From positions 1 to 41,268 of the forward strand of contig DASYXX010000833.1 in NCBI GenBank assembly GCA_035934395.1: a DNA stretch of 41,268 nucleotides, written 5' to 3'. The notes below the pieces were generated by a model. That model ran no database searches. It was given only the letters and a program-made list of their open reading frames with translations, and was not told the origin of the DNA. The stretch is from Streptosporangiaceae bacterium (GTDB taxonomy: Bacteria > Actinomycetota > Actinomycetes > Streptosporangiales > Streptosporangiaceae). A program made the position numbers and the translations under genes. How positions within the stretch are numbered: the first letter of the stretch is position 1; every line of letters starts with the position of its first letter. Shown here in pieces: positions 8,815-40,027 of the stretch.

Positions 8815-8903
8815 GTGATCATCTCCTGGCTGTGCCTCGGCGGGGGCCCGCATCGCCCGGTACGATGCCGCCGTCGAAGTCGGATTACTGCCGTGGATTC
8901 CCG

Positions 8904-9704: not shown

Positions 9705-9829
9705 TCCCACCCGCTCTGCCTCGCTCCGGGCCGCGCCGGACAGTTCCAATATCGACATCGAAATTGTAAGTTGGCAGGTACGTTGCCCGCAATCTGCTCG
9801 AGCTGACACACGGGCCGGGAGGATCGCCG

Positions 9830-10255
9830 ATGAGCTGGGACTTCCAGACCGAACCCGAATTCCAGCAGGTGCTCGACTGGGCGGATCAGTTCGTCCGCGA
9901 CGAGGTCGAGCCCTTGGACTACGTGGTGGCCTCTGCCTATGACCGCGACGACCCGGTGCGGCAGGCCCTCATCCCGCCGCTGCAGGGGATGGTCAGGGAG
10001 CACGGCCTGTGGGCGACCCACCTTGGGCCGGAGCACGGCGGGCCGGGCTACGGCCAGGTGAAGCTCGGCCTGCTCAACGAGATACTCGGCGCGGACGGGC
10101 CGACCGAGGTGCACAAGATGACCGTCGCGCGGGAGCTACTGCGCGACATGAAGCCAGCGGAGAGCGCGTTCCCCAGTGAGCACGTCCCGGCGCGCCGGGC
10201 GGCGGCGATGGCGAAATACGCCGACGTCCTGGCCAGGGTGCAGGCCGGTGGCTGA
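9830..10255 (+). pseudogene. Acyl-CoA dehydrogenase remnant. The N-terminal ~85 aa are joined in frame to the last ~55 aa, so the internal ~250 aa are missing.
   Basis: 'MSWDFQTEPEFQQVLDWADQFVRDEVEPLD...GYGQVKLGLLNEILG' is a FadE-type N-terminus. It is followed directly by 'ADGPTEVHKMTVARELLRDMKP...', the C-terminal helix motif. The total is only 141 aa, against roughly 390-410 expected. Confidence 0.65.
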
Positions 10256-11297
10256 TCCCGGGCCGCCCGTGGCCAGTGCCGTGGCCGCGGCGTTCGAGCC
10301 GGACGCCGCGGACCTTGCCCGCCGGCTGTCCGCAGCCGCCCAGCGGTGGCAGCCCGGCGCCATGGTGACGGGCGTGCGCAGGCTGCCCGGCGGCGAGTCC
10401 AGCCTCACCTACCTGGCAACGGTCGACTCCGCGCCGTGCGACCGGATCGTCGTCAAGGTCGCGCCGCCGGGCCTCCCGGCGACCCGCAACCGCAACGTGC
10501 TTCGCCAGGCACAGCTGCTGGCAGAGCTGCACGGCACGCCCGTGCCCGTGCCCGAGGTGCTGTTCACCGACGACGGTGCGCTCCGCCACGGGCCGATGTT
10601 CGCGATGAGCTTCTGCGAGGGGGATAGCCTCGAGCCGAATATCGACGAGGCTCCTGGTCCGGCGCCGCCTCCGCCAGAGCTGGCCGCCCGGGCCCGCCAT
10701 GCCGCCCGGATCCTGGCGGACCTGCACGGGCGCGACGTGCGGGCGGCGTGGTTCACCGCGGAGCGCCCGCTATCGCTGTCGGGCGAGATCGCTCGCTGGG
10801 AGCGAGCCCTGAGCACTCTTCCGGCCGACTTCGGCCTGGCCTGGGAAGGCATGTGCGCGCGGCTGCGGGCCACCGAGCCGCAGCCGGTCGCCGCCTGCCT
10901 GACTCACGGTGATTTCCGCCTCGGGAACACGCTCTGCCGGGGCGGGCGCGTTACCGCCGTCCTGGACTGGGAGATCTGGTCGCGCGGCGATCCCCGGCTC
11001 GATCTCGCGTGGTTCCTGCTGTCCCTCGACGGCGGGGCACACCCTGCTTCCGTCCGGGCCGCACCGGGGATTCCCGGCACCGGGGAGCTGATCGGGGAGT
11101 ACGAGGCGGCACGGGGCTCGGCCGTCGGATCCCTTTCCTGGTTCACGGCGCTCAGCCTGCTCAAGCTGACGGCGACGACCGGGCTCATCGCCAAGCACGC
11201 CTTGCGGCGCGGGGATACCTCGAACTGGGGGGTGCGCATGCTTCCCCGGCTGCGCCGGATGCTCGCCGACCCGGGCCGTGCCCTCGGCGAGCCGTGA
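10248..11297 (+). CDS. Phosphotransferase (APH/choline-kinase-like) family protein
   Basis: Brenner-type 'LTHGDFRLGNTL' and 'VLDWEIWSRGDPRLDLAW'. The GTG start overlaps the upstream stop (GTGGCTGA, 10248-10255). Confidence 0.8.
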   Translation: MADPGPPVASAVAAAFEPDAADLARRLSAAAQRWQPGAMVTGVRRLPGGESSLTYLATVDSAPCDRIVVKVAPPGLPATRNRNVLRQAQLLAELHGTPVPVPEVLFTDDGALRHGPMFAMSFCEGDSLEPNIDEAPGPAPPPPELAARARHAARILADLHGRDVRAAWFTAERPLSLSGEIARWERALSTLPADFGLAWEGMCARLRATEPQPVAACLTHGDFRLGNTLCRGGRVTAVLDWEIWSRGDPRLDLAWFLLSLDGGAHPASVRAAPGIPGTGELIGEYEAARGSAVGSLSWFTALSLLKLTATTGLIAKHALRRGDTSNWGVRMLPRLRRMLADPGRALGEP

Positions 11298-11394
11298 GCA
11301 CCGAGCGCGCCGGAGTCAGTCACTGAGCACGCCCACATCCCGCCGGGCCTAATGAGTGCCTTTCACCATGCAGGACCCACCGCTGCCACCGGTC

Positions 11395-12345
11395 CTACGT
11401 GCCCGACAGCCCGCGGGGCGGAGGATCGCGATGAGCGCAGGCGCCGGACTGGTTCTCCCGGGCCAGCGCGCACTCCTCGGCGAACGCCAGGACCTTGAGG
11501 TGGTAGGCCGGCGCCGCCAGCCCGAGGCTCAGGTTGTGGCCGCTGCCCGGCTGCTCCTCGGTTACGACCCGCGGCGAGGCGGTGAACAGGGCCGCGATCT
11601 CGGCGAGCGCTGGCGGGCCGGACCGCCACACGGTCTCGTGATCGCCGAGGCAGTAGCGGACCGGGATGCGGACGCGGGCGGCGAGCGCCGGGGCCTCCCG
11701 CGGCCAGCGCCCGATCTCATCGCCCTCGAACGGGGGGCTGGGTGAGTACATGCCGTCGCCGGCGCCCGCGGGGTACAGCCGGTCCGGTCCCCAGATCATG
11801 TCCCGCACGGCGGTCACCGGCCCGTCTCGCGCCGGCGCGTCCAGCATGTCGCTGCGCAGCACTCTCGTCCGCAGGGCGGCCCCGAAACGGGGCTGGTACT
11901 GCCGCCCGATGCCGGCGATCTCCAGGCCCAGCAGGTCCGTCCCGCGCTCGTCGGCCGCCATCCGCACCGCCAGGACGCAGCCCAGCGAGTGCGCCGCCAG
12001 GAACACGCCGGCCCCCCTCGGGCGCTCCGCCAGCAGGCGGTCGACCGCCGCATAGGCGAGGTCCACCCGCCGGCCGGCGGACGCCATCTGGTCCGCGTGC
12101 GGGGCGGAGCTCCCGTATCCCGGCCGGTCGAGGGCGATGACCGTGAACCCGAGCGCCGCGCCGGTCCGCAGCAGTGAGTGCCGCGGCTGGCCCGGGGCGT
12201 CGAAGTACGCGGACGTGACCGCGCCGCCGTGCAGCGCGACGACGACCGCCCGGGGGCGGCGGACCTCGGCCAGCCGCCCCGACATCGGGATGCCGTCGGC
12301 GTCGACGACGCGGGAGGAGGTGACGAAGCTCTCGGCTGGCGTCAC
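11395..12345 (-). CDS. alpha/beta hydrolase
   Basis: 'AVVVALHGGAVTSAYF', 'ALDRPGYGSS' and the nucleophile elbow 'AAHSLGC'. GTG at 12345 overlaps the upstream stop (GTGA). The 488-aa listed ORF is a spurious N-terminal extension. Confidence 0.8.
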   Translation of the reverse strand: MTPAESFVTSSRVVDADGIPMSGRLAEVRRPRAVVVALHGGAVTSAYFDAPGQPRHSLLRTGAALGFTVIALDRPGYGSSAPHADQMASAGRRVDLAYAAVDRLLAERPRGAGVFLAAHSLGCVLAVRMAADERGTDLLGLEIAGIGRQYQPRFGAALRTRVLRSDMLDAPARDGPVTAVRDMIWGPDRLYPAGAGDGMYSPSPPFEGDEIGRWPREAPALAARVRIPVRYCLGDHETVWRSGPPALAEIAALFTASPRVVTEEQPGSGHNLSLGLAAPAYHLKVLAFAEECALARENQSGACAHRDPPPRGLSGT

Positions 12346-14012
12346 GCGTCCGTCCGGAACAGGATGACGCCGCTGGGCGTGAGGCCGCCCGAGCTCACCA
12401 CGGCGACCCGGGCTCCCGGCACCTGCCGTTCCCCGCCCTCGCCGCGCAGCTGGACGATCGCCTCGTGGACCAGGCCCATGCCGTGGGTGCGGCCGTGGGA
12501 GAGCTGGCCGCCGTGGGTGTTCAGCGGCAGCAGGCCGTCCCGGGCGATGTTCTTCCCGCCGTCGAGGAAGTCCCTGGCCTCGCCGATGCCGCAGAAGCCC
12601 AGCGCCTCGATCCAGGACAGGCAGTTGAACGTGTAGCCGTCGTAGAGCTCGGCCACGTCCACGTCGCCGGGACGCAGCGACGTGCGGGTCCACAGGTGCG
12701 CGGACTGCCCCAGGACCTGCGGCTCGTGGGTCAGCGTGCTCTGGTCCCACTCGAGCCGCTCGATGATCTGGGTGCCGACGGCCTCCACCAGGACGGGCGT
12801 CTTGGCCAGGTCCCGTGCCGTGTCCCTGGCCGATACGATCACGGCGATCGCTGCGTCGCACGGCACGTCGCAGTCGTATAGCCCGAACGGCGTGGTGATC
12901 ATCCGCGCGTTCAGGTAGTCATCCATCGTCAGCGGGTCGCGGTAGATCGCCGTCGGGTTCAGCGCGGCGTTCGCCCGCTGGTTCAGCGCGATCCAGCCCA
13001 GCGTCTCGCGCGTGGTTCCGTAACGGTGGAAGTGCCGGTGCGCGCTCTGGGCCAGGGTGTGTGCCGCCGACGTCGCCCCGAACGGCATCGACCAGCCCAT
13101 CAGGCCCGCGGCACGCCCGGCGTTCTGCGTGATCTTGCCCTGGCGGACAAGCTCGTCGTGCGTGGCCTGCCACAGGGTCCGGAAGCAGAGCACGTGCCGG
13201 ACCAGCCCGCCGGCGACCGCCAGCATCGCCGCGATCACCGAGCCGCCCGGCCCGAACGTCTCGCCGCCGCCGTTGTACCAGGTCGGCCGGATGCCGAGGG
13301 CGTCCTCCAGCGCGGTCACCCCGCCCTCGCTGAACGGGCCCGCCAGGCCGCCCGGGTAGGTGGACAGGCCGTCGATGTCGTTCATGGTGAGCCCGGCGTC
13401 CGCGATCGCGCGCTCGCAGGCCTGCACGGTCAGCGAGAGCGGGGGGACCATCAGCCGCCGCCCGATCTCCGACATCCCGATCCCGGTGATCGCGACCTTG
13501 TCCTCGAACTTCTCGCGCGTGGCCATCGGGCGCACGTGGCGCCGCATCTGGTCCGGCTCGATCTCGTCCGACGGCAGCGGCGCCGGCTCGCCTTGCTCTT
13601 CCGCGGGCCGGAACAGCGGCAGCCACACGTCCTCGGCCTGCTCGAACACCACCTCCATGCGCATGCCAAGCTCGAGCCGCTCCGGATCGCACCCGACCAC
13701 GTTCGTGGTGAGCCGGACCCGCGGGTCCTCCTCGATCGCGACCTGCGCCACCACGTACGGCGCGGGCAGCCCGGGCAGGCTGAACCGGTGGTTGACCGTG
13801 AACCCGATGAGCGTCGCGTAACCGGAGACCGCGCGCACGCCCATCTGGCGCCCGCGGCAGTACCGGCAGACCGGCTGCGGCGGATGGATCAGCGCCTTAC
13901 ACGACTCACACTCGGTGAACCGCAGCCGGCCGTCGGCTCCCGACCTCCAGAAGAACTCGTTCTCCGGCGTGACCAGCGGCAGCAGGCGGCCGGGCTGAGA
14001 ATCAGTGGCCAA
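12342..14012 (-). CDS. Fusion of a DUF35 (Zn-ribbon + OB-fold) domain and an SCP-x/Ltp-type thiolase-like domain
   Basis: N-terminus 'FFWRSGADGRLRFTECESCKALIHPPQPVCRYCRG' is the rubredoxin-like Zn ribbon of DUF35. From 'KVAITGIGMSEIGRR' onward it is thiolase-like ('LPLNTHGGQLSHGRTHGMG'). The TTG start at 14012 overlaps the P450 stop by 11 nt. Confidence 0.8.
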   Translation of the reverse strand: MATDSQPGRLLPLVTPENEFFWRSGADGRLRFTECESCKALIHPPQPVCRYCRGRQMGVRAVSGYATLIGFTVNHRFSLPGLPAPYVVAQVAIEEDPRVRLTTNVVGCDPERLELGMRMEVVFEQAEDVWLPLFRPAEEQGEPAPLPSDEIEPDQMRRHVRPMATREKFEDKVAITGIGMSEIGRRLMVPPLSLTVQACERAIADAGLTMNDIDGLSTYPGGLAGPFSEGGVTALEDALGIRPTWYNGGGETFGPGGSVIAAMLAVAGGLVRHVLCFRTLWQATHDELVRQGKITQNAGRAAGLMGWSMPFGATSAAHTLAQSAHRHFHRYGTTRETLGWIALNQRANAALNPTAIYRDPLTMDDYLNARMITTPFGLYDCDVPCDAAIAVIVSARDTARDLAKTPVLVEAVGTQIIERLEWDQSTLTHEPQVLGQSAHLWTRTSLRPGDVDVAELYDGYTFNCLSWIEALGFCGIGEARDFLDGGKNIARDGLLPLNTHGGQLSHGRTHGMGLVHEAIVQLRGEGGERQVPGARVAVVSSGGLTPSGVILFRTDA

Positions 14013-15369
14013 TCTGAGCCTTGGCCTTCCGCACGGTCACCGGCTCGGCGAGGCCCTGCTCGTCGCAGAGCCGCTGGAGCATCTCGATGGTCTCGTCGAG
14101 CCCGGCGCCCAGCCTGGGTCCGGGGGTGAACGTGGCCGGGAGGTGTTGCATGCCCTGGATGACCCCGATGGTCTCGTAGTGCACCGCCCCGGCCGGGTCG
14201 CACCGGAAGTCGGGCATACGGTCGAGCACCGCGGTGATCATCCGCTTGAACACCATGCGGGCCACGTTCGAGCCGATGCACCGGTGCAGGCCCAGCCCGA
14301 AGCTGAAGTGCCTGTTGCCGGTGCGGGCCATCTCGATCTCGTTCGGGTTGTCGAACAGTGCGGGATCGCGGTTGGCCATGGCCCAGGACAGCCATATCCG
14401 CTCGCCCTCCTTGAACCGGGTGCCGGCGATCTCGCAGTCCTGTGAGATCGTGCGCCCGTCCCCGGGGGCGGGCGTATAGAACCGCAGAAACTCCTCGGTC
14501 GCCGGGTCCAGCAGCGTGTCCCGCTCCCTGGACAGGCGCTCCCGCTGGTCGGGGTGCTCGGACAGCCACTCCAGCGCGTGCGCGGTCAGCGAGGTGGTCG
14601 TGTCGAACCCGCCGCCGATGAGCAGGAGCAGCACCCCGAACAGCTCCATGTCGGGGGGCGTCTTGCCGTTGATCTTCGCGCGGACGAGCGCGTCCACCAG
14701 GCCGGGCCGGGGATGCTCCCGGATCTGGGCGATCTGGTTGAACAGGTCCTCGCCCATCGCGACCTGGATCTGCCGCACCCGGGCCATGTCCGGCGAGTCG
14801 GGGGGCGTGTACACCGCGGCGTGGGTCGGCTCGCAGTAGATCGTCCAGCTCTTCAGCGGCATGCCCAGCATGGCGAGCGTCAGCACGGCCGGAACCACGT
14901 TGGCCAGGTCGTCGACGAAGTCGATCCGGCCGGTCTCGATCTTCTCGTTCAGGCAGGCGCGGACCAGCTCCTCGACCACGGGGACCCACCGGGCCACGGC
15001 GGCCGGGGACAGGTAGGGATTGAGCGCCTGGCGGTACTCGCGCTGCTCGGGCGGGTCCATCTCCAGGAACCCGCCCTGGATCGGCATCTCGTCCTGCGTC
15101 GGGACGCTGATGCCCTTGTAGCCGCGCCGCACGCCCTCGATGTCGTGGTCGTTGGACAGGTACTGGGCGGAGCGAGCGAGTTCGAATACCTCGCTGGCTC
15201 CGGCGGCGACCCAGTGCCCGCCGTATGTGTCGCTCCAGGCCACGGGGCACCTGGCCTGCATCTCCTGGGTGATCGCCTCGAACTGGTGCCGGTATTCCGG
15301 CGCGTGACGGGCGAAGTGGTAGCTGCGCTTCTTGCGGTCAGCGTCGAGGGGGATTTCTTCTACGCTCAC
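14002..15369 (-). CDS. Cytochrome P450 monooxygenase
   Basis: Heme loop 'FSFGLGLHRCIG', I-helix 'LLLIGGGFDTTTS' and ExxR 'EEFLR'. GTG start is preceded by AAGGAGA. Confidence 0.92.
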   Translation of the reverse strand: MSVEEIPLDADRKKRSYHFARHAPEYRHQFEAITQEMQARCPVAWSDTYGGHWVAAGASEVFELARSAQYLSNDHDIEGVRRGYKGISVPTQDEMPIQGGFLEMDPPEQREYRQALNPYLSPAAVARWVPVVEELVRACLNEKIETGRIDFVDDLANVVPAVLTLAMLGMPLKSWTIYCEPTHAAVYTPPDSPDMARVRQIQVAMGEDLFNQIAQIREHPRPGLVDALVRAKINGKTPPDMELFGVLLLLIGGGFDTTTSLTAHALEWLSEHPDQRERLSRERDTLLDPATEEFLRFYTPAPGDGRTISQDCEIAGTRFKEGERIWLSWAMANRDPALFDNPNEIEMARTGNRHFSFGLGLHRCIGSNVARMVFKRMITAVLDRMPDFRCDPAGAVHYETIGVIQGMQHLPATFTPGPRLGAGLDETIEMLQRLCDEQGLAEPVTVRKAKAQIGH

Positions 15370-15405
15370 GCCGTACTTCTCCTTGCTGCGGCCGGGCCGG
15401 TGGCG

Positions 15406-15597
15406 TTATGAAATTGAAATCGCTTGTTCCGGGCAGGAGCGCACGGCCTCGGCCACCTTGTCCTCCTGGTCGGCCGGGACTTCCTCGCTCAGCGGCGAGG
15501 AATGCCCGTCGATCTCATCGAGCTGGAACATCTTCGGGGCGATCATGTTGCAGAGCGTGTGACCCTGGCAGCGCTCGGGGTCTACGTGAACCTTCAT
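15406..15597 (-). CDS. Small ferredoxin (single-cluster, 3Fe-4S-type CxxHxxC...CP)
   Basis: 'CQGHTLC' ... 'SCPEQAISI'. It is 63 aa and lies immediately upstream of the P450, as for actinobacterial P450 redox partners. Confidence 0.85.
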   Translation of the reverse strand: MKVHVDPERCQGHTLCNMIAPKMFQLDEIDGHSSPLSEEVPADQEDKVAEAVRSCPEQAISIS

Positions 15598-15609
15598 GCC
15601 ACTCTCCCC

Positions 15610-16470
15610 TTACAGGTGGAAGTCGTACAACTTGAGGTAGCCGCCCGCGTCCACCCTAAGCTGCATGCCGGTGATGTAGCGGGCCTCATCGGAGGCCAGG
15701 AACAGCACGGCGTTGGAGATGTCCACCGGCTCGATGTAGGGGATCGGCATGGCCTGCTGCACGGGGAACGCCATCTCGGCATCCTGGCGTGTGGGGTGCT
15801 CCAGGTCCGGGCGGAATGCCTTGTACATCGGCTCGCTGAACAGCATGTCCGTGGCGACGTTGGTGGGGTGTATGACGTTGGCCCGGATCTTCCTGGGGGC
15901 CAGCTCGCGCGCCAGGTCGTGCACGTACTGCGACAGCATCCGCTTGGCCACCATGTAGCCCACGCCGCCGGGGTCCGTGCCTACCTGCATCATGGGCAGC
16001 GCGTTGATGTATGCCGCGGTCGAGCCGGTCGCGATGACCGAGGCGCCCTCGGCCAGGTGCGGCAGCGCCACGTGGATCGCGTTGATCGTCCCGAGCAGGT
16101 TGGTGTCCAGCACGTCGGCCCAGGCCTGCATCGGCGGATCACCCTGCATCGCGGCGATCCCCGCCTGCGCCACGACGATGTCGAGCCGGCCCAGCTCGGC
16201 GAGGCCCGAGTCCAGAGCGTCGCGCAGCTGGGCCCGCTCGCGCACGTCGGCCTGCACGGCCACGATGCGGCGGTCCTGCGCCTCGACCAGGCGGACGGTC
16301 TCCTTCAGGTCGTCCGGCCCGGCCAGGGAGTACTTGATCGACTCGATGTCGTGGCAGAGGTCTACCGCGATGATGTCGGCGCCTTCCTGCGCCAGCCGCA
16401 CCGCGTGACTGCGGCCCTGGCCGCGCGCGGCACCCGTGATGAAGGCGATCTTGCCCTGAACACGTCCCAT
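15610..16470 (-). CDS. SDR oxidoreductase of the mycofactocin-coupled (carveol-dehydrogenase-like) subfamily
   Basis: 'KIAFITGAARGQGRSHAVRLAQEGADIIAVDLC' is the signature N-terminus of that subfamily. Also 'YMVAKRML' (YxxxK), with C-terminus 'RVDAGGYLK'. Confidence 0.8.
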   Translation of the reverse strand: MGRVQGKIAFITGAARGQGRSHAVRLAQEGADIIAVDLCHDIESIKYSLAGPDDLKETVRLVEAQDRRIVAVQADVRERAQLRDALDSGLAELGRLDIVVAQAGIAAMQGDPPMQAWADVLDTNLLGTINAIHVALPHLAEGASVIATGSTAAYINALPMMQVGTDPGGVGYMVAKRMLSQYVHDLARELAPRKIRANVIHPTNVATDMLFSEPMYKAFRPDLEHPTRQDAEMAFPVQQAMPIPYIEPVDISNAVLFLASDEARYITGMQLRVDAGGYLKLYDFHL

Positions 16471-16497
16471 TGGCGGGAGTCCTTTCTGTGTTTGCCG

Positions 16498-16818
16498 CTA
16501 TACCCGGGGCTCGACCACGAGGTCGAGGTAGGCGGCGCCGCTGTCGGGCACCCGCGCCTGCTTCCATACCTCGACCGGGAACGAGACCATGACAAGGGAG
16601 TACATCAGGTACAGCAGGTTGCGCTCGGCCTCGGGTAGCTCGTGCAGCGGGAACGTGTCCAGGTGCGCCATGGCCGGCTCGAGCAGGGGGAAGGCGGCGT
16701 CGTAGAGGGCCTGCATCTCCTCCATGGACGACGCGAGCCGCTTGGCGTAACGCTCGGGCTCGGTGGCCAGGACCCAGTCGCTGAAGCGCTCCAGGGCCGC
16801 GAACTCAGCGGGCAGCAC
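16498..16818 (-). CDS. Small acidic hypothetical protein (106 aa) overlapping the Rieske gene's 3' end
   Basis: GTG at 16818 overlaps the Rieske stop (16805-16807) by 14 nt. It sits in the same operon. No family recognised. Confidence 0.5.
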   Translation of the reverse strand: MLPAEFAALERFSDWVLATEPERYAKRLASSMEEMQALYDAAFPLLEPAMAHLDTFPLHELPEAERNLLYLMYSLVMVSFPVEVWKQARVPDSGAAYLDLVVEPRV

Positions 16819-18076
16819 CGGCGTGCTCCCTGACGTAGTCCCCGGCGGTCTTGTGCAGGTGCCGGAGCAGGATCTCCTGGTCGTTGAGGGGGAACTCGGT
16901 GACCGCGCGGCTCTTCAGCATCATCTGGGTGGCCTCCAGGGTGTTGCCGTCCTGGAGCGCGTACTCCTTGAACGTGACCGCGGCGATCTCGCGGGCGAGC
17001 CGCTCGCTCGCGGTCCTCGACGGGACGAAGTACAGGCCACCCTCGAACAGGTGCCTGTCCACCGCGGTGGGCCAGTAGTGGTAGGTCAGGTACCATCCCG
17101 GCGCCCAGATCAGCATCTGGAAGTTGGGGAAGAAGAAGAACGAGTCCATGCCCCAGGCCTTGTTCCGGGCCGGGTTGATGCCGGCCGGCAGCGGGTCCAG
17201 GCCGTCGACGGCGGGCCGGTCCCAGGGGCCGAACAGGCCGCTGCGCAGCACCCGCTCGATCGGCTTGACCATGTTCAGGTCCTTGGGCGGTGCCATGCCG
17301 CCCCAGGAGGAGAGCATCGAGTGCCGGCCGTACAGCTCGTAGTGCAGCCCCTCGTAGCCATAGCCGAGCAGCTTGTCCGCCTCCTGTTTGACCGCCTGTT
17401 TCTGATGCAGCACCGGCGCGTGGTAGAACTCGGCGAACGCGTCGATGAACAGCTTCCAGTTGCTGCCGACCTCCGCCTTGTAGCTGAACACCTCGGTCAT
17501 CTCGTGGAACGGCCAGCCCTCGAGGCCCTTGGCCATCTCGCCGAGGTAGTCGGTCAGCGGCTGCGCCTGCGGGTCCAGGTTGACGAAGATGAACCCCTCC
17601 CAGATCTCGCAGCGCACGGGCCTGAGGCCGTACTGGCTCTTGTCGACGCCGAAGAACTCACTTTCCTGCTGGATGAACGTGTTCTCGCCGTCCAGGCCGT
17701 ACCGCCAGCCGTGGTACTTGCAGGTGAACTGCCGGCATGTGCCTGCCGTCTCCTCCCGCGGGAAGTCGTTCCAGACCAGCTTGTTGCCCCGGTGCCGGCA
17801 GATGTTGTGGAACGCCCGGATCTGGCCGTCCCGGCCCCGCACGATGATCAGCGAGGTGTCGGCGACCGCGAGTTCCCTGGTGAAGTAGCTGCCGGTCCTC
17901 GGCAGCCGCTCCACCCGGCCGACGTTCAGCCAGGTCCGCTTGAAGATGGCCTCGCGCTCGGCCTCGTAGTGAGCCGGATCGATGGAGTCGGAGTAATCGA
18001 CGGGGCCGGTGCCGAGCTCGGGGTAGTGCTCGGTCCAGCTTCCCTCCGCTGGCTTGCCGAAATGCGGCATGATCAT
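16805..18076 (-). CDS. Rieske [2Fe-2S] non-heme-iron oxygenase, alpha-subunit type (no beta subunit present)
   Basis: Rieske ligands 'CRHRG...CKYHGW'. Mononuclear-iron region 'NWKLFIDAFAEFYHAPVLH'. Confidence 0.9.
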   Translation of the reverse strand: MIMPHFGKPAEGSWTEHYPELGTGPVDYSDSIDPAHYEAEREAIFKRTWLNVGRVERLPRTGSYFTRELAVADTSLIIVRGRDGQIRAFHNICRHRGNKLVWNDFPREETAGTCRQFTCKYHGWRYGLDGENTFIQQESEFFGVDKSQYGLRPVRCEIWEGFIFVNLDPQAQPLTDYLGEMAKGLEGWPFHEMTEVFSYKAEVGSNWKLFIDAFAEFYHAPVLHQKQAVKQEADKLLGYGYEGLHYELYGRHSMLSSWGGMAPPKDLNMVKPIERVLRSGLFGPWDRPAVDGLDPLPAGINPARNKAWGMDSFFFFPNFQMLIWAPGWYLTYHYWPTAVDRHLFEGGLYFVPSRTASERLAREIAAVTFKEYALQDGNTLEATQMMLKSRAVTEFPLNDQEILLRHLHKTAGDYVREHAGAAR

Positions 18077-18615
18077 GTTCCCTTCTCGAAGTCACCGTCG
18101 GGAAGGCCCGGCTCGAGTTCCACCCCGAACGTGTTGAAGGCCATGGCCAGCAGGCCGTAGGTGCCGATCGTGAAGACCAGGTCCATGAGCTGGCGGTCGT
18201 CCAGCTCGGCGGCGAGCTCCCGGTAGGTCTCATCCGAGAGGCAGGAGTCGTCGTCGAGCTCGTCAACCGCCCGGCTGATCAGCGTCGCGTCCCCGGCGCG
18301 GATGCCGGCGATCTCCTCGTCGGTGATCCCGGCCCGCCTGGCGATCTGCACGTGCTGCGCCCACTCGTACCGGCAGCGCCGCCGCCAGGCGATCTGCAGG
18401 ATGGCCAGCTCGCGGGTGCGGGCCGGCAGCGCGGAGGCGGTCAGCAGGTGGACGTTGAAGGTCAGGAACGCCCTGGCCAGCGCGGGATGCTGGGCCAGCA
18501 GCCCCAGGACGTTGTTCGGCGGGAGCTTGCGCCCGCCGGAGATCGCCGACAGCGCGTCGGTGTCCCACTGGTCGTAGGGCAGCGGGGGGATCCGCGGGGT
18601 CGTCACCCGGCTCAC
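18073..18615 (-). CDS. Carboxymuconolactone decarboxylase (AhpD-like) family protein
   Basis: 'ARTRELAILQIAWRRRCRYEWAQHVQIARRAGITDEEI' is the CMD-domain core. GTG at 18615 overlaps the upstream stop (GTGA) and its stop overlaps the Rieske ATG (ATGA). The listed 503-aa ORF is an artefactual extension. Confidence 0.75.
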   Translation of the reverse strand: MSRVTTPRIPPLPYDQWDTDALSAISGGRKLPPNNVLGLLAQHPALARAFLTFNVHLLTASALPARTRELAILQIAWRRRCRYEWAQHVQIARRAGITDEEIAGIRAGDATLISRAVDELDDDSCLSDETYRELAAELDDRQLMDLVFTIGTYGLLAMAFNTFGVELEPGLPDGDFEKGT

Positions 18616-19331
18616 GTGTTCCGTCCGCCGTTCACGCCGATGAGCTGGCCGGTGATGTACCCGGCCTCCTCGGAGACCAGGAACGCGCACGCAGCGGCGA
18701 TGTCCTCGGGCCTTCCGACCCGGCGAACGGGCGTGCGTTCGATATGATCTTCGATTTTTCCGCCGAGCCGGCCGCGCGCCTCGGCCCTGCGCAGCATCGG
18801 GGTGTCGATGAAGCCGGGCGGGACCGCGTTGACCGTGATCCCGGACGGGCCGAGCTCCAGGGCCAGCGACTTGGTCAGCCCGTTGACCGCCGACTTGGCC
18901 GCCACGTAGTGGGCCATGAACGGCTGGCCCGAGTGCGTGCTGGAGGACGAGATGTTGACGATCCGCCCCCAGCCCGTCTCGAGCATGTCCGGGAGCACGG
19001 CCTGGATGCAGTGGAAGACGCCGTTCAGGTTGACGTCGATCACCCGCTGCCAGGCCTCGAACGTCAGGTCCGCGAACCGCTTGAAGCCGTCCACCCCGGC
19101 CGCGTTGACCAGGATCGTCACCGGGCCGAGCCGCTCCCTGACCGCGGCCAGCGCGGCGTCCACCTGAGCCCGGTCGGTCACGTCGGCCACCAGGCCGAAG
19201 CCCGCTCCCGACGGGTTGAGGTCGAGCGCGGCGACCTGGCACCCGTCCTTGCTCAGCCGCTCGGCGATGGCCAGGCCGATGCCCGATGCACCGCCGGTGA
19301 CGACGGCGTTTCTGGTGATGGTGTTCCTCAT
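18612..19331 (-). CDS. SDR oxidoreductase (FabG-like 3-oxoacyl reductase type)
   Basis: 'AVVTGGASGIGLAIA', 'NISSSS' and 'YVAAKSAV'. Confidence 0.88.
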   Translation of the reverse strand: MRNTITRNAVVTGGASGIGLAIAERLSKDGCQVAALDLNPSGAGFGLVADVTDRAQVDAALAAVRERLGPVTILVNAAGVDGFKRFADLTFEAWQRVIDVNLNGVFHCIQAVLPDMLETGWGRIVNISSSSTHSGQPFMAHYVAAKSAVNGLTKSLALELGPSGITVNAVPPGFIDTPMLRRAEARGRLGGKIEDHIERTPVRRVGRPEDIAAACAFLVSEEAGYITGQLIGVNGGRNT

Positions 19332-20134
19332 GACCAGGGCTCGTCGCCCACGATCGTGGTCCGGTGCAGGGTCCGCTCCGAGGATGCCTCGTATGGCTGG
19401 GCGCGGTGCAGCATGCCGGTGTTGTCCCAGACCACCAGGTCACCGACCTGCCAGTCGTGGGTGTAGCAGAATCGTTCCTGGGTGGACCAGGCCAGCAGCT
19501 CGTCGAGCAGCGCCCGGCTCTCGGCGGGCTCCAGCCCTGCGATGTGGTCGGCGGTCGCGCCGATGACCAGGGACCGCCGGCCATCGCGGCGCCGCCAGAC
19601 CAGCGACGTCTCGTGCGTGGGCACCCTGCGCCAGCCCGCGACCTCCTGCTCGGTGGGGTCCGGCTTCACCAGCCGCTGCGACGCCTCGAAGCTGTGCACC
19701 ACGCGCAGCCCCTCGTACCGCTTGCGCTCGGCGTCGGGCAGGTTCTCGTAGGCCGCGTAGGTGCTGGCGAACTCGGTGCCGCCGCCCACCGCGGCCACGT
19801 GCCGGGCCGTCAGCGTGGTCGCCTGCACCGGCACCTTGATCGTGGTGCCGTCGATGTGCCAGTGGAAGGTGCCCTTGAGGTACTCGGCCTGGTCGGTCTT
19901 GGCCGGGTCCAGTGACACCGTGAAGATCTCCCTGCCGCGCAGCGCCACCACGTGGCCCAGCCTCCGGCTGAACGCGAGCTGCCCCTCGTCGTCCAGGTGC
20001 AGGCCGCGGATGAGCAGCACGCCGCGCCACTTCAGCGCCTCCACGCAGCGGCTGATCGCCGCGTCGTCGAACCCGCCGTCGACGCCGGTGACCGCTACGC
20101 CCAGGTGCGGGCTCAGCGCCCTGGTCTCGATCAT
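19328..20134 (-). CDS. TauD/TfdA-family Fe(II)/2-oxoglutarate-dependent dioxygenase
   Basis: 'FHWHIDG' (HxD facial triad) and 'VVWDNTGMLHRAQPY...RTLHRTTI'. ATG at 20134 is preceded by GGGAGA. The listed 598-aa ORF runs on into the antisense of the neighbouring gene. Confidence 0.85.
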   Translation of the reverse strand: MIETRALSPHLGVAVTGVDGGFDDAAISRCVEALKWRGVLLIRGLHLDDEGQLAFSRRLGHVVALRGREIFTVSLDPAKTDQAEYLKGTFHWHIDGTTIKVPVQATTLTARHVAAVGGGTEFASTYAAYENLPDAERKRYEGLRVVHSFEASQRLVKPDPTEQEVAGWRRVPTHETSLVWRRRDGRRSLVIGATADHIAGLEPAESRALLDELLAWSTQERFCYTHDWQVGDLVVWDNTGMLHRAQPYEASSERTLHRTTIVGDEPWS

Positions 20135-20248
20135 GGAAATCTCCCTTTCGGTGTGTGAGAATACTACTCTCATTGTTAAGGGAGCCGGAAGAGGAGACAG
20201 GGATGCAAAGGAGTTCCTGCAGCGCAAGACCCTGGCTACGGTGATCTC

Positions 20249-21451
20249 ATGAAACCACTCGAGGGGATCCGCGTCCTCGAGGTGGCCATGTACGGCTTCG
20301 TCCCGTCGGGCGGGGCCGTGCTGGCCGACTGGGGCGCGGACGTGATCAAGGTAGAGCACGCCGTCACCGGCGACCCGCAGCGCGGGCTGCGGATGATCGG
20401 CGCGTTCCGGGTCGAGGGCGACCCGAACCCCAACGTCGATCACTTCAACCGGGGCAAGCGCAGCATCGGCCTGCACCTGGGCACGCCCGGGGGCCGGGAG
20501 GTCCTCTACGAGCTGGCCCGCCGGGCGGACGTGTTCCTGACCAGCTTCCTGCCCGCGGCCCGGCGCAAGTTCGGCATGGACGTGGACGACATCAGGGCGG
20601 TGAACCCGGAGATCATCTACGCGCGGGGCAGCGCGCTGGGCCCGCGCGGCGCGGAAGCGGACAAGGGCGGCTACGACTTCACGGCCTTCTGGTGCCGGGG
20701 CACCCACGCCGCCAGCCTCACCCCGCCCAACATCGAAGGGCTGATCAGCCCGGCGCCCGCCTACGGTGACACGATCTCCGGCACCAACCTGGCTGGCGGG
20801 ATCGCTGCCGCGCTCTTCCGGCGCGAGCGCACGGGGGAGCCGTCGGTCGTGGACGTCTCCCTGCTCGGCAGCGGCCTGTGGACCCTGGGCCACGCGCTCG
20901 CGCTCTCGCTGCACCTCGGCATGCCCTGGGTGCCGCCGCCGCAGGGCTCCCACGGCGCGATGGCCAACCCGCTGTCCGGGCTGTACCGCACCGCCGACGG
21001 CCGGTACCTCTCGTTCGTCATGCTCCAGCCCGGCAAGTTCTGGGCCGACGTGTGCCAGCACATCGACCGACCCGGGCTGGCCGACGATCCCCGGTTCGGC
21101 ACCGCCGAGCAGATCGCCGCCCACACCGACGAGGCGGTCAAGATCCTGCAGGAGGTGATCGCCACCCGCACGCTCGCGGAGTGGACCGAGCGGTTCGCGA
21201 CCCTGGCCGGCCCCTGGGCGCCCGTGCAGGACACCTTGCAGGCCGCCGCCGACGCGCAGGTCCGGGCCAACGAGTACATCCTGCGGTCCGGCGAGCTCGA
21301 GCTGGCCTCGAGCCCGGTGCAGTTCGACGTCAGCCCGCCGCAGCTCGGCCCGGCGCCCGAGTTCGCCGCGCAGACCGAGGAGATCCTGCTCGAGCTCGGC
21401 CTGGACTGGGACCGCATCACGGAGCTCAAGGAGGCGGGCGCGGTCACCTGA
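20249..21451 (+). CDS. Family III CoA-transferase (CaiB/BaiF/Frc type)
   Basis: 'LEGIRVLEVAMYGFVPSGGAVLADWGADVIKVE', 'NRGKRSIGLHL', and a full-length C-terminus '...EFAAQTEEILLELGLDWDRITELKEAGAV'. Confidence 0.88.
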   Translation: MKPLEGIRVLEVAMYGFVPSGGAVLADWGADVIKVEHAVTGDPQRGLRMIGAFRVEGDPNPNVDHFNRGKRSIGLHLGTPGGREVLYELARRADVFLTSFLPAARRKFGMDVDDIRAVNPEIIYARGSALGPRGAEADKGGYDFTAFWCRGTHAASLTPPNIEGLISPAPAYGDTISGTNLAGGIAAALFRRERTGEPSVVDVSLLGSGLWTLGHALALSLHLGMPWVPPPQGSHGAMANPLSGLYRTADGRYLSFVMLQPGKFWADVCQHIDRPGLADDPRFGTAEQIAAHTDEAVKILQEVIATRTLAEWTERFATLAGPWAPVQDTLQAAADAQVRANEYILRSGELELASSPVQFDVSPPQLGPAPEFAAQTEEILLELGLDWDRITELKEAGAVT

Positions 21452-21455
21452 TCCG

Positions 21456-23633
21456 ATGAGCGATAACGTCTCCGGCCCCGCCGGATCGGCCTTCGACGCC
21501 GCGCTGGCGGCGGTGCGGGCCGGCGCCGACCCCGTCCAGCAGGCCAGGAACCTCTACGAGCTGCTCAGCCAGACCGAGCGGCTCGGGCTGCTGGACGGCG
21601 ACGCCCCGTTCTGGGCCGGGCTGGCGAAGCTGCGCGCGGCGCGTTACGGCTCGCGGCCGTACGTGCACGGCGCCGTGACGCGCCTGGGCATCCCGGGGAT
21701 CCGCTTCGTCGACGGCCCGCGCGGCTGCGTCGCGGGGGACGGGACCGCGTTTCCCGTGTCGATGGCGCGGGGCGCCACCTGGGACCCGGGCCTGGAGCAG
21801 CGGGTCGGTGAGGCGATCGGCGCCGAGGTCCGCGCCCAGGGCGGAAACTTCTTCGGCGGGGTCTGCATCAACCTGCCGCGTCACCCCGCCTGGGGCCGGG
21901 TGCAGGAGACCTACGGCGACGACCCGCTGCACCTGGGCGCGTTCGGCGCGGCGCTGGCCCGCGGGGCGCAGCGGCACGTCATGGCGTGCGCCAAGCACTA
22001 CGCGCTCAACTCGATGGAGAACGCCCGCTTCAAGGTCGACGTGACCATCGACGAGGGCGCGCTGCACGAGGTGTACCTGCCGCATTTCAGGCGCGTCGCG
22101 GGCGAGGGCGTCGCCGGCATCATGGCCGCCTACAACTCGGTGAACGGCGAGTGGGCGGGCCAGAACCGGTACCTGCTCACCGAGGTCCTGCGCGACCGGT
22201 GGCACTGGGACGGCATCACGGTCAGCGACTTCGTCTTCGGGCTGCGGGACGCGGCGGCGTCGCTCAACGCGGGCCTGGACCTCGAGGAGCCGTTCGCGCA
22301 GCAGCGCGCCCAGCACCTGCGGTCGCAGATCGCCCGGGGCGAGACCGGCTGGGAGATGGTCGAGCGGTCCGGGGTCCGGCTCATCGCGGCCCAGCTGCGC
22401 TGCTACGCCGGCCGGACCGCGGCCGAGCCGGGCGCGGAGGTCATGGCCAGCGCCGGGCACCGCGCGCTGGCGCGTGAGGTGGCCGCCCGCGCCATGGTCC
22501 TGCTGAGGAACGAGCCGGTGGCGGGCATGCCGGTGCTCCCCCTGGACCCGGCGGCCACGGGGCGCGTCGCCGTCATCGGCGCGCTCGCGACCGCCGCGAA
22601 CATGGGCGACTTCGGCTCCTCCCGGGTCCACCCGCCCGGGCACGTGACACCGCTGGAGGGCATCCGGGCCGCCTTCCCCGGAAGCGAGGTCACGCTCGTC
22701 GACGGGGATGACCCGGTCCGCGCCGCCGAGGCGGCGCGCCAGGCCGACGCGGCGGTGGTGGTCGTGGGCTACGACGGGCACGACGAGGGCGAGTACGTCG
22801 ACGTGGCGGGGATGGCGACGCCGGAGCTGCTCGCGCTGTTCCCGCCCCTGCCGCCCGGCGAGGCGCTGCCCGCGCTGGACGCGGATGACACCGGCATGAC
22901 CGGAGGTGACCGTGCCTCGCTGCGGCTGCACCCGGGCGACGAGGAGCTCGTCCGCACGGTCGCGCAGGCTTGCCCGCGCACCGTGGTCTGCGTCGTCGCC
23001 GGCGGTGCCGTGATCATGGAAGCGTGGCGGCACGACGTCCCCGCCATCCTGATCATGTGGTATGCCGGCATGGAGGGCGGCCACGCGCTGGCCGACGTCC
23101 TCACCGGCGCGCACAACCCGTCCGGCCGCCTCCCGTTCTCGGTCCCCACCTCCGAGGAGCACCTGCCGTCCTTCGACCGGGACGCCAGCTCGGTCACCTA
23201 CGACCGCTTCCACGGCCAGCGGCTGCTCGACAAGCTCGGCGCGGACGCCGCCTACCCGCACGGGTTCGGCCTCTCGTACACGACGTTCGCCGTGGAGACT
23301 GCCGCCGCGGGCATGCCCGCGGGCGGGAAGGTGCCGGTCACCGCCCGGGTGCGCAACACCGGCGGGCGTGACGGCTGGCACGTGGTCCAGGTGTACGGCC
23401 AGCGCGCCGTGGGCGAGCGCGCGGGCGAGAGCGCCCTGGTCGGCTTCGCCGCCGCCGAGGTCCCGGCGGGCCGGACCGTCGAGGTCGAGGTGGACTGCTC
23501 GCTCGACCCCCTCGCCATCTGGAACCCGCGGACCCGCCAGCTCGACCCGCCCGCCCGGACCACCGTCGCCCTCGAGGTAGCCGCCCACGCCCACGACCCC
23601 GCCGCGCTCACCCTCCAGGTGGCGCTGCCCTAA
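21456..23633 (+). CDS. Glycoside hydrolase family 3 (beta-glucosidase-like), no signal peptide
   Basis: 'FVDGPRG', 'KHYALNSMENAR', 'GITVSDF' (nucleophile Asp region), and a C-terminal Fn3-like 'VTARVRNTGGRDGWHVVQVY'. It starts 4 nt after the CoA-transferase stop. Confidence 0.88.
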   Translation: MSDNVSGPAGSAFDAALAAVRAGADPVQQARNLYELLSQTERLGLLDGDAPFWAGLAKLRAARYGSRPYVHGAVTRLGIPGIRFVDGPRGCVAGDGTAFPVSMARGATWDPGLEQRVGEAIGAEVRAQGGNFFGGVCINLPRHPAWGRVQETYGDDPLHLGAFGAALARGAQRHVMACAKHYALNSMENARFKVDVTIDEGALHEVYLPHFRRVAGEGVAGIMAAYNSVNGEWAGQNRYLLTEVLRDRWHWDGITVSDFVFGLRDAAASLNAGLDLEEPFAQQRAQHLRSQIARGETGWEMVERSGVRLIAAQLRCYAGRTAAEPGAEVMASAGHRALAREVAARAMVLLRNEPVAGMPVLPLDPAATGRVAVIGALATAANMGDFGSSRVHPPGHVTPLEGIRAAFPGSEVTLVDGDDPVRAAEAARQADAAVVVVGYDGHDEGEYVDVAGMATPELLALFPPLPPGEALPALDADDTGMTGGDRASLRLHPGDEELVRTVAQACPRTVVCVVAGGAVIMEAWRHDVPAILIMWYAGMEGGHALADVLTGAHNPSGRLPFSVPTSEEHLPSFDRDASSVTYDRFHGQRLLDKLGADAAYPHGFGLSYTTFAVETAAAGMPAGGKVPVTARVRNTGGRDGWHVVQVYGQRAVGERAGESALVGFAAAEVPAGRTVEVEVDCSLDPLAIWNPRTRQLDPPARTTVALEVAAHAHDPAALTLQVALP

Positions 23634-23641
23634 AGCGGCAG

Positions 23642-25180: not shown

Positions 25181-25226
25181 CTTTCACGGGATGCCGGGGA
25201 TTGTGGCCCGCACCGAGTGCCCGAGA

Positions 25227-26335: not shown

Positions 26336-26398
26336 GTATGGAATTTAGCTTCTCTCTTTGGAAGAATGCAATTACCATAGTCATAACGGAGCGGCGCG

Positions 26399-27958: not shown

Positions 27959-27987
27959 GATTCTCCTAACTAGCGAGGGAGGATCTC

Positions 27988-29175: not shown

Positions 29176-29192
29176 GCGACCGAGCGACGGCC

Positions 29193-32461: not shown

Positions 32462-32582
32462 GTGACCCCTCCGCGGCGGCAGGGCTCCGCCCGCCGCCAT
32501 CGAGCGCAGCGTACTGCCCGCCCCCGTCGAGCAGCGTTACTGGTATTGGCATTCTCTTTTTTGGCAAGTAACGTATCCCAGG

Positions 32583-40001: not shown

Positions 40002-40016
40002 TCTCTCCGGGAGAGA
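40002..40016. promoter_or_regulatory. Perfect 15-bp palindrome in a 54-bp divergent intergenic region (candidate operator)
   Basis: TCTCTCC G GGAGAGA at 40002-40016, between the SDR start (39973, minus strand) and the ligase start (40028, plus strand). Confidence 0.45.
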
Positions 40017-40027
40017 ATAACATTCTC

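Follow-up and report, generated by a model that had tools for sequence, protein, structure and literature searches.

A compact ten-gene operon with three oxygenase classes, a form of a probable and apparently undescribed breakdown pathway of actinomycetes

Here we describe positions 11395–20134 of a 41,268-nt contig (the window throughout), a stretch of about 70% GC actinomycete DNA from a fragmented metagenome-assembled genome (MAG) of soil origin (967 contigs, 5.5 Mb, 87% complete). Ten genes, called A to J below, lie there head to tail on the minus strand and bring together a TauD-type dioxygenase, a Rieske oxygenase and a cytochrome P450. The operon is a compact version of an apparently undescribed breakdown pathway found in about 8% of the sampled actinomycete species. 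We consider it reasonably probable that 11395–20134 is a genuine, translationally coupled ten-gene operon and that it compacts an oxidative catabolic gene set conserved in Actinomycetota, one that is probably TetR-controlled and acts on a CoA-activated hydrophobic carboxylic acid.

The ten genes and their products

The genes, in the order of transcription, are as follows.

19328–20134, minus strand: gene A, first gene, TauD/TfdA-family Fe(II)/2-oxoglutarate (2OG) dioxygenase, 268 aa (Pfam TauD, E 1e-57)
18612–19331, minus strand: gene B, FabG-like short-chain dehydrogenase (SDR), 239 aa (Pfam adh_short_C2, E 1e-61; NCBIfam FabG subfamily, 233 bits)
18073–18615, minus strand: gene C, CMD/AhpD-fold protein, 180 aa (Pfam CMD, E 1.5e-14)
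16805–18076, minus strand: gene D, Rieske non-haem iron oxygenase alpha subunit, 423 aa (Pfam Rieske and Ring_hydroxyl_A)
16498–16818, minus strand: gene E, 106-aa helical protein (p106) of no known family, invariant partner of the Rieske gene
15610–16470, minus strand: gene F, mycofactocin-coupled SDR (mftSDR) of carveol-dehydrogenase type, 286 aa (TIGR03971)
15406–15597, minus strand: gene G, single-cluster ferredoxin, 63 aa (Pfam Fer4_15, E 7e-17)
14002–15369, minus strand: gene H, cytochrome P450, 455 aa (Pfam p450)
12342–14012, minus strand: gene I, DUF35 domain (Cys4 zinc ribbon and OB fold) fused to a thiolase-like domain, 556 aa (Pfam zf-ChsH2, OB_ChsH2, Thiolase_C_1)
11395–12345, minus strand: gene J, last gene, alpha/beta-fold hydrolase, 316 aa (Pfam Abhydrolase_6, Hydrolase_4)

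All ten open reading frames (ORFs) proposed in an initial annotation of this DNA were recovered at the coordinates it gave, and recomputing the junctions returned the overlaps it listed: four-nucleotide overlaps of ATGA (19328–19331 and 18073–18076) or GTGA (18612–18615 and 12342–12345), and longer ones of 14 nt (16805–16818) and 11 nt (14002–14012). The other gaps, put there at 12–36 nt, measure 27, 12 and 36 nt, and a Shine-Dalgarno-like, purine-rich run stands before each gene that follows one of them. An independent gene caller based on GC3 suffix scores set the same boundaries for nine of the ten genes, missing the 63-aa ferredoxin alone, and Pfam and NCBIfam bear out the domain assignments of all ten and likewise place the 106-aa protein in no family. 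Internal promoters or terminators had been named as what would split the block, and a simple consensus scan detected no sigma-70-like promoter and no intrinsic terminator on the minus strand within 11395–20134, a null that is weak evidence because this is actinomycete DNA of 70% GC. The operon itself holds no regulator gene, as had been noted; the candidate described below sits on another contig, C638. An Rfam search of the window returned no riboswitch and no other RNA family. In two soil runs, X5 and X13, depth over 10800–21600 is flat, spanning genes, spacers and convergent neighbours alike.

Gene D has the motifs CRHRG...CKYHGW, NWK..DAFAEFYHAPVLH, EFYHAPVLH and LQDGNT, all kept in 85 homologs, and with them the Rieske ligands (CxH...CxxH) and the His-x4-His portion of the facial triad. 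The conserved Asp of LQDGNT is a candidate carboxylate iron ligand; it belongs to a C-terminal half without alignment to solved structures, only the N-terminal half aligning to solved oxygenases (HcaE, CntA; E about 1e-30). A KshA-like identity was rejected, KshA being absent from the solved-structure matches. No NTF2-type beta subunit, as would be expected of an alpha3-beta3 enzyme, lies beside gene D; the downstream gene encodes the four-helix protein E. This protein has no match in Pfam, NCBIfam or PDB sequences, and Foldseek found no PDB match to its fold at E < 1. Gene E follows the Rieske gene in 80 of 81 loci, so that the pair forms an invariant core, and 82 of the 84 pairs show an overlap of 4–80 nt between the two. 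The AlphaFold model of E (pLDDT 88.7) has four helices, and its C-terminal tail, FPVEVWKQxRVPDSGAA, is strongly conserved yet modelled with low confidence, which suggests that the tail folds on a partner.

The presumed electron donor of Rieske oxygenase D is encoded further along the window.

25337–26344, minus strand: FNR-type reductase with C-terminal 2Fe-2S domain (Pfam FAD_binding_6, NAD_binding_1, Fer2)

Its FAD-NAD-2Fe2S layout is that of two-component systems. Among the related loci and genomes introduced below (L and G numbers), orthologs of 67–76% identity lie near the cluster in L001, L014, L017 and L031, and a 49% homolog stands directly upstream of SDRb-Rieske-p106-TauD in G177. 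With an alpha subunit only, a class-IA-like reductase gene nearby and intact Rieske and mononuclear-iron motifs, gene D resembles the two-component, alpha-only Rieske mono-oxygenases KshAB, CntAB, GbcAB and VanAB. It differs from them in that its alignment (E about 1e-30) is confined to the N-terminal half and in that it is invariably coupled to a small helical protein without known fold relative. Tandem duplicates of the Rieske-p106 pair occur in L037, L064, L066 and L068 and in G130 (contig C87, 95337–99156), with a P450 and a ferredoxin between the pairs in Rhodococcus and a TauD gene between them in G130. In a plasmid collection the Rieske gene was found on one Streptomyces megaplasmid only; the Rieske module is therefore not typically plasmid-borne.

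Both halves of gene I match the Ltp2-ChsH2(DUF35) complex 6ok1 (E 3e-54, and 5.5e-19 for the DUF35 domain against chain 6ok1_B), and by its sequence the product looks like a retro-aldolase of the Ltp2/Sal type and not a thiolase. The roles of the catalytic residues in these aldolases have been assigned (PMC12329534). Like Ltp2-ChsH2(DUF35) and Sal-Shy(DUF35) (PDB 6ok1; PMC12329534), gene I has a thiolase fold without the nucleophilic Cys, the aligned position reading GPGGS in a form conserved in 10 orthologs; it keeps the Tyr base of the YDxF/Y motif, its YDGY aligning to Y294DHF of TcLtp2; and it has a Cys4 zinc-ribbon/OB DUF35 domain with CESC...CRYC conserved. The CoA-thioester setting, with a P450 and hydratases, is also shared. 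In the known aldolases, however, DUF35 is a separate protein or the tail of a hydratase, whereas here it is fused at the N-terminus, and where they have YDHF or YDCY and, in Ltp2, Tyr344, gene I has YDGY, with Arg at the position of Ltp2 Tyr344 and Gly at the Sal Cys304 (YDCY)/His position. The predicted enzyme would thus fail one defining feature of both characterised aldolase subfamilies and, its second catalytic residue being replaced, would need a different proton donor. Its locus also differs from those of the steroid aldolases in having no steroid-nucleus genes nearby.

The TauD-type enzyme encoded by gene A is a full-length Pfam TauD match (196 bits) whose motifs WHIDG (HxD), MLHRA (distal His) and RTLHR provide the HxD...H iron triad and the 2OG-binding Arg. 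Its nearest solved structures are TfdA-like 2,4-D dioxygenases, TauD, AtsK and Rv3406. Such relatives (TfdA, SdpA, TauD, AtsK and Rv3406) break a C-O or C-S bond through hydroxylation of the carbon beside it. In its full-length fold, intact triad and best PDB matches gene A resembles these group II TauD/TfdA dioxygenases (TauD, TfdA, SdpA/RdpA, AtsK, Rv3406), from which it differs in that all its NCBIfam equivalog scores are far below cut-off and in that its family is recurrently encoded directly after Rieske-p106 pairs. Identity with taurine dioxygenase was rejected (NF007104, 112 bits against a cut-off of 313). We found no description of a Rieske-p106/TauD-type association in the literature searched.

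Gene B orthologs, 77–87% identical, precede CMD-Rieske in L001, L002, L003, L009 and other loci, and 56 of the 81 loci have a CMD gene ahead of the Rieske gene; gene C has a conserved C-x-Y-E-x3-H motif where CxxC is expected. Gene F scores 347.7 bits against the TIGR03971 cut-off of 300, which places it among the mycofactocin-coupled SDRs, and has orthologs of 81–85% in L001, L002 and L021 and of 67% in the G177 island, where the order is SDRb-mftSDR-Fdx-P450. The genome itself carries a C-terminal fragment of MftC, the radical-SAM maturase of mycofactocin (contig C114, 1495–1803; 189 bits over the 103 model positions 236–338, where the whole-protein cut-off is 265). Its match stops at base 1803, where locus L085 also ends, so the contig end has probably truncated the gene. 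To judge from these sequences, the organism probably makes mycofactocin.

Gene G has only three Cys (C10-x2-H-x2-C16...C55-P), consistent with a 3Fe-4S cluster, always adjoins the P450 gene in relatives and is presumed to be the P450 partner. In gene H we find the motifs FSFGLGLHRCIG, EEFLR and GGFDTTT; with its haem-thiolate, ExxR and I-helix motifs and the ferredoxin gene 36 nt upstream, it has the features of a class I P450. Among solved structures, P450cin and CYP125 ancestors are its nearest, at about the same distance (E about 1e-50), and the window holds no ferredoxin reductase for the pair. Gene J has an AHSLG nucleophile elbow, and its orthologs adjoin gene I in L021 and seven Streptomyces-class genomes (57–66%), with homologs of 49–52% in the G177, G439 and G404 islands.

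A recurrent gene set in several arrangements

A Rieske-anchored scan with one genome per species yielded 80 loci, whose gene D homologs have 72–84% identity and come from a wide range of actinomycete genera (Streptosporangiales, Streptomyces, Nocardia, Mycobacterium, Rhodococcus, Gordonia, Frankia and others). The window proteins were mapped onto these loci by tblastn, and the called genes were clustered de novo. The order seen in the window recurs as B-C-D-E-F-G-H-I in L001, with J added in L021, and as B to G in L002 before the contig ends, and L017 carries A to F. The block order is thus not unique to this strain; strain-specific synteny combined with genes of disparate origin had been named as an outcome that would refute the reading. 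The exact order A to J was found in no other genome. TauD orthologs head the operon in L017 (78%) and G144 (71%) and elsewhere only in the window.

In most genera the arrangement is a canonical one, CMD-Rieske-p106-Amidohydro_1-SnoaL followed by two acyl-CoA dehydrogenase (ACAD) genes, divergent from a CoA-transferase, an SDR, an ACAD and a Liv-type ABC importer, with an enoyl-CoA hydratase, a second ACAD pair and a TetR gene close by. A Streptomyces/Streptacidiphilus class (7 loci) has J, I, H, G, a binding protein, CoA-transferase, aldehyde dehydrogenase and SDR on one strand, divergent from SDR B-CMD-Rieske-p106-amidohydrolase, and its J orthologs are 58–66% identical. The complete Streptomyces-like genome G144 shows a fourth layout within 18 kb, in which TauD-SDR B-CMD and a DAP-dehydrogenase-like gene are divergent from SDR-aldehyde dehydrogenase-CoA-transferase-binding protein-ferredoxin-P450-fusion-hydrolase...Rieske-p106-amidohydrolase.

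Homologs of all ten genes also lie in an island of roughly 75 kb in G177 (A 49%, B 78%, C 50%, D 69%, E 59–62%, F 67%, G 68%, H 65%, I 73%, J 52%). G177 belongs to a genus, g79, that is probably mycobacterial, because its proteins are 75–91% identical to those of Mycobacterium sp. loci and its GC content is 66–68%. There the genes fall into four blocks: CMD-Rieske-p106-amidohydrolase-SnoaL-ACAD; reductase-SDR-Rieske-p106-TauD-P450-ferredoxin; hydrolase J-fusion I; and SDR B-mftSDR-ferredoxin-P450 H, the last divergent from aldehyde dehydrogenase and CoA-transferase (72%). Such repeated re-assembly, in at least four orders, is strong evidence that the genes are functionally linked. Ten loci contain all six of the Rieske, P450, fusion, CoA-transferase, CMD and SDR proteins, and the six trees built from these loci show the same groupings and are congruent; the genes are therefore not of disparate origin.

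Co-occurrence was assessed in a sample of 400 genomes of the class, searched with D, I, TauD and H; the counts are not corrected for phylogeny.

Fusion I, full length, 50–82% identity: 41 genomes
Rieske D, E <= 1e-100: 34 genomes
TauD, >= 40% identity: 24 genomes
P450 H ortholog, 64–70% identity: 14 genomes

D and I occur together in 33 genomes, D without I in 1, I without D in 8 and neither in 358 (Fisher 1.5e-39); the corresponding numbers for D and TauD are 22, 12, 2 and 364 (1.6e-25). All 14 genomes with an H ortholog also have D and I. Position adds independent weight to the association of TauD with the Rieske gene, since 25 of the 61 TauD homologs have a Rieske homolog on their own strand no more than 1.5 kb away, and 20 of these 25 are 300–500 bp downstream of it. 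A spacing of 300–500 bp fits the p106 gene, and we therefore take these as Rieske-p106-TauD triads, present in 19 genomes. The distribution is nonetheless uneven, the Rieske ortholog being absent from the sampled genera of the same family.

Taken as a whole, the operon is a mosaic of three differently distributed modules: TauD; SDR-CMD-Rieske-p106; and mftSDR-ferredoxin-P450-fusion-hydrolase. The proposal that the ten genes serve one pathway is upheld insofar as synteny, co-occurrence and trees show them behaving as a single functional set, and is to be qualified by this mosaic structure. Likewise, the combination of three oxygenases, described at the outset as unusual, is rare among characterised pathways yet a recurrent association in Actinomycetota.

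A shared operator and the surrounding genes

The 114-bp region from which the operon diverges, 20135–20248, contains a palindrome with three further copies in the genome.

20157–20171: operator-like palindrome, GAGAGT-AGT-ATTCTC on the minus strand, in the divergent promoter region, ending 22 nt before the TauD start
27951–27965: second copy, GAGAATAGGATTCTC, before Amidohydro_2 and CoA-ligase genes
40013–40027: third copy, GAGAATAACATTCTC, between a divergent SDR gene (minus strand) and an AMP-binding gene (plus strand)
Contig C638, 2393–2407: fourth copy, 19 bp before an Amidohydro_1 (76%)-TetR_f8 (70%) operon

These four sites of the consensus (T)GAGAAT-N3-ATTCTC(A), three of them in the window, compare with 0.014 expected in a 5.5-Mb genome. 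A 15-mer identical to 20157–20171 precedes SDRb in L002/L100, and close variants stand before SDR B in L001, L014, L021 and L031 and before TauD in G144. Across the 80 loci we counted 131 sites, 125 of them intergenic, against 0–1 in 20 shuffles; the genes most often found behind them are CMD (33), TetR_f8 (33), Rieske (21), ACAD (15) and the binding protein (14). Several operons and a regulator gene thus share the operator far above chance, as in a TetR regulon, and judged by these motifs the operon appears to belong to a small, sharply defined regulon.

A second piece of this regulon is C638 344–7356. Here the Amidohydro_1 gene, 76% identical to the canonical Rieske-p106 partner, and TetR_f8 lie behind the operator and are divergent from Amidohydro_2, hydratase, ACAD, TetR_f33 and a 158-aa family. 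TetR_f8, encoded at C638 344–973, is likely the missing regulator of the operon, a candidate by co-location only. The palindrome before several catabolic operons and before the regulator's own gene, together with the TetR fold, recalls the lipid and steroid regulons of KstR, KstR2, FasR and FadR type. TetR_f8 differs from those regulators in scoring far below the FasR and KstR cut-offs: no characterised protein is closely related to it, the nearest being FasR (PDB E 1e-7), with 38 bits against a cut-off of 330, and KstR gives 19.7 bits against 280. The operator consensus also differs from the KstR/KstR2-type motifs. Within the window, which is the part of the genome that was searched for a KstR-type regulon, we saw no KshA, KstD or Hsa genes and no KstR-type operator.

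The functional unit reaches past 11395–20134, to the divergent CoA-transferase, the FNR/2Fe-2S reductase, CoA ligases and an amidohydrolase. Its neighbours in the window are listed here.

8865–10255: hydratase (8865–9704) and an ACAD-like truncated ORF, 141 aa (9830–10255)
20249–21451, plus strand: family III CoA-transferase, divergent from the operon across the 114-bp gap (Pfam CoA_transf_3, E 1e-77)
21456–25183: GH3 glycosidase and a convergent Abhydrolase_10 gene, between the CoA-transferase and the reductase
26399–27958, plus strand: AMP-forming acyl-CoA ligase (Pfam AMP-binding)
27988–30620, plus strand: Amidohydro_2-family protein (27988–29175) and second acyl-CoA ligase (29193–30620) (Pfam)
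32466–39195: B12 mutase large and small subunits, luciferase-like monooxygenase, CoA-transferase, ligase and DAP-dehydrogenase-like protein
39212–39973, minus strand: SDR gene
40028 onward, plus strand: AMP-binding gene (ligase)

The CoA-transferase at 20249–21451 is nearer Rv3272, Frc and SUGCT than MCR racemases, and its orthologs (72–84%) are found with the cluster in 10 loci as well as in G177 and G144; a reading as an MCR racemase was discarded, true transferases scoring far better. Conservation extends to the ligase at 26399–27958, with orthologs of 69–81% in L001, L014, L017, L021 and L031, and to the Amidohydro_2 gene, with orthologs of 75–84% in L001, L011 and L017. GH3 and Abhydrolase_10 have no counterpart in the 80 related loci (family size 1) and look like an insertion into the cluster specific to this genome. 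Beyond the ligase and Amidohydro_2 genes, before the B12 mutase, lies an enoyl-CoA hydratase (Pfam). The block 32466–39195 may belong to the same pathway: B12 mutase orthologs of 86–88% lie near the Rieske gene in L006, L029 and L039, and the DAP-dehydrogenase-like gene (38152–39195) has a 65% ortholog directly after CMD in G144 (L118, 749–1774). On the other side of the operon are an APH-like kinase, a hydratase and an SDR. The hydratase at 8865–9704 and the ORF at 9830–10255 are matched at the end of the G177 island (L105, 18941–19903) by homologs of 51% and 56%, and because of these the truncated ORF may be a conserved gene and not a deletion remnant.

With three CoA ligases, two CoA-transferases, two enoyl-CoA hydratases and a B12 mutase in the window, the setting of the operon is CoA-thioester catabolism. 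No biosynthetic scaffold gene (polyketide synthase [PKS], non-ribosomal peptide synthetase [NRPS] or terpene synthase) was found in the 41-kb window or in the related loci.

A proposed pathway and competing explanations

Our working model is that the pathway would begin with hydroxylation of an unactivated carbon by P450 H and ferredoxin G, after which mycofactocin-type SDR F would oxidise the alcohol, the aldehyde dehydrogenase of relatives performing the next step to the acid. The family III CoA-transferase or the neighbouring ligases would form the CoA thioester. Rieske oxygenase D with the reductase at 25337–26344, helped by its obligatory partner E, would hydroxylate a position that blocks beta-oxidation, and TauD-type A a second position, possibly the carbon beside a heteroatom, like its nearest relatives. 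SDR B and CMD-fold C would process the hydroxy/keto intermediate, fusion I would split the beta-hydroxyacyl-CoA in a retro-aldol reaction like that of Ltp2 and Sal, and hydrolysis by J would follow to finish that step. The TetR protein of C638 would probably repress the operon through GAGAAT-N3-ATTCTC in the promoter region. We found no description of this gene cluster or combination in the literature searched (full text), the only useful precedents being Ltp2/Sal and the ipf pathway, in which a Rieske oxygenase prepares an acyl-CoA for thiolase-like/DUF35 cleavage and a CoA ligase takes part (PMC9195938).

Several observations weigh against reading the ten genes as one conserved, TetR-controlled catabolic operon. 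The MAG is fragmented and carries 6% contamination. The genes occur in only 9–13 of 175 genera (D in 10, I in 13), the statistics ignore kinship, and the Rieske ortholog was found in only 1 of 15 genomes of the same genus. Within 10 kb on either side, about 70 of the 80 Rieske-p106 loci lack G-H-I-J and have amidohydrolase-SnoaL-ACAD instead, so the modules can work apart, and G017 has a fusion homolog of 65% identity without a Rieske gene. The operator at 20157–20171 departs from the consensus at one position, the regulator is proposed from co-location, gene I lacks the second catalytic residue of its relatives, and the order of reactions given above is taken from family membership. Finally, runs X5 and X13, labelled transcriptomic, contain the region as assembled contigs with depth as flat as in the DNA run X1; these soil runs probably contain DNA or carry the wrong label.

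Some of these points would fit a chance concatenation of independent detoxification or catabolic modules (Rieske; P450/aldolase; a stray TauD) that serve different substrates behind one promoter. The distributions of the modules differ, as the Rieske-free fusion homolog of G017 illustrates, TauD is in head position only in the window, L017 and G144, about 10 of the 80 loci have G-H-I-J no farther than 10 kb from the Rieske gene, and the canonical Rieske-p106 partners (amidohydrolase, SnoaL, ACAD pair) are not in the operon. We nevertheless think such a concatenation unlikely: D is accompanied by I in 33 of 34 genomes and H by both in 14 of 14; the 25 close Rieske-TauD pairs include 20 with the 300–500 bp triad spacing, in 19 genomes; and the set was re-assembled in at least four orders with congruent trees and an operator common to the modules. 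A variant of steroid or bile-acid side-chain degradation, with a CYP125-like P450 acting on a terminal methyl, an Ltp2-like aldolase taking off the last side-chain unit and a Rieske oxygenase replacing KshA, would account for the best structural relatives of the fusion (Ltp2-ChsH2(DUF35) and a second lipid-transfer-protein/dehydratase pair), for a P450 near CYP125 ancestors and CYP142, and for the paired ACAD genes and enoyl-CoA hydratases frequent in related clusters. We regard it as quite improbable, given that KshA is not among the solved structures matched by gene D, that neither the window nor the 80 loci showed KstD, Hsa or Mce-type genes, and that KstR reaches only 19.7 bits against the candidate regulator, with an operator unlike the KstR/KstR2 motifs; moreover, the Ltp2 catalytic pair is only half conserved, and the monoterpene enzyme P450cin matches the P450 as well as CYP125 does.

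A terpenoid-, steroid- or alkyl-type substrate had been suggested at the outset. That ring-cleavage dioxygenases and steroid-nucleus genes are both missing speaks against a plain aromatic as well as a plain steroid substrate. An aryl-alkanoic acid pathway in the manner of ipf, with CoA activation, ipso/ortho ring dioxygenation and removal of the side chain to give a catechol, has in its favour that the enzyme logic matches ipfABDEF, which releases propionyl-CoA (PMC9195938), and that ligases and a reductase are adjacent. The ipfABDEF(GHI) cluster of the ibuprofen upper pathway in Sphingomonadaceae likewise unites Rieske, thiolase-like, DUF35, CoA ligase and reductase genes (PMC9195938). That system, however, has a classical alpha/beta dioxygenase and catechol meta-cleavage genes, whereas the window locus has the helical 106-aa partner, no NTF2-type beta subunit and no ring-cleavage genes (no extradiol or intradiol dioxygenase was seen in the window or related loci), and the operon differs further by its P450, TauD and CMD genes. 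As the reductase is of the two-component type usual for monooxygenases and demethylases, and the commonest companions are ACADs, hydratases and amidohydrolases, an ipf-like pathway is very unlikely. Least credible, and scarcely to be entertained, is the idea that the genes tailor a secondary metabolite. TauD-type enzymes, P450s and Rieske oxygenases often serve in tailoring, and NCBIfam shows weak similarity to pentalenolactone enzymes, but none of the NCBIfam equivalog scores comes near its cut-off, the 41-kb window and related loci contain no scaffold gene, whether PKS, NRPS, terpene synthase or other, and the neighbours are beta-oxidation-type genes, CoA ligases and transferases and a B12 mutase, with an ABC uptake system in relatives.

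Within the catabolic operon reading favoured here, a more specific picture is possible, which we put forward tentatively and with less confidence than the operon itself. The operon may be the most compact known form of an undescribed multi-oxygenase pathway in about 8% of the sampled actinomycete species (probably environmental mycobacteria, Nocardia, Rhodococcus, Streptomyces and Actinomadura), with a new quaternary type of Rieske oxygenase (alpha subunit plus a 106-aa helical subunit of novel fold) and a dedicated TauD, a fused aldolase with a new catalytic pair, and an acyl-CoA-sensing TetR repressor acting on GAGAAT-N3-ATTCTC; the substrate may be a common soil lipid. If so, a widespread actinomycete catabolic system with its own regulator and operator has been overlooked, as have a partner protein of Rieske oxygenases and a recurrent pairing of Rieske and Fe/2OG oxygenases. 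As a single unit of 8.7 kb, the operon lends itself to heterologous expression, to the search for its substrate and to studies of what the 106-aa partner and the fused aldolase do. The operator offers a handle on the whole regulon in hundreds of genomes, for predicting members, for electrophoretic mobility shift assays and for reporter fusions that reveal inducers.

The G177 island (L110, L105, L115) additionally encodes an AveC-like protein, a CbbQ/VWA ATPase pair, a MarR regulator and a Rieske-type ferredoxin beside a Nuo51-like FMN/4Fe-4S protein. It also encodes a sulfotransferase, and since this lies beside TauD-type (alkyl-sulfatase-like) genes, sulfated substrates are hinted at there.

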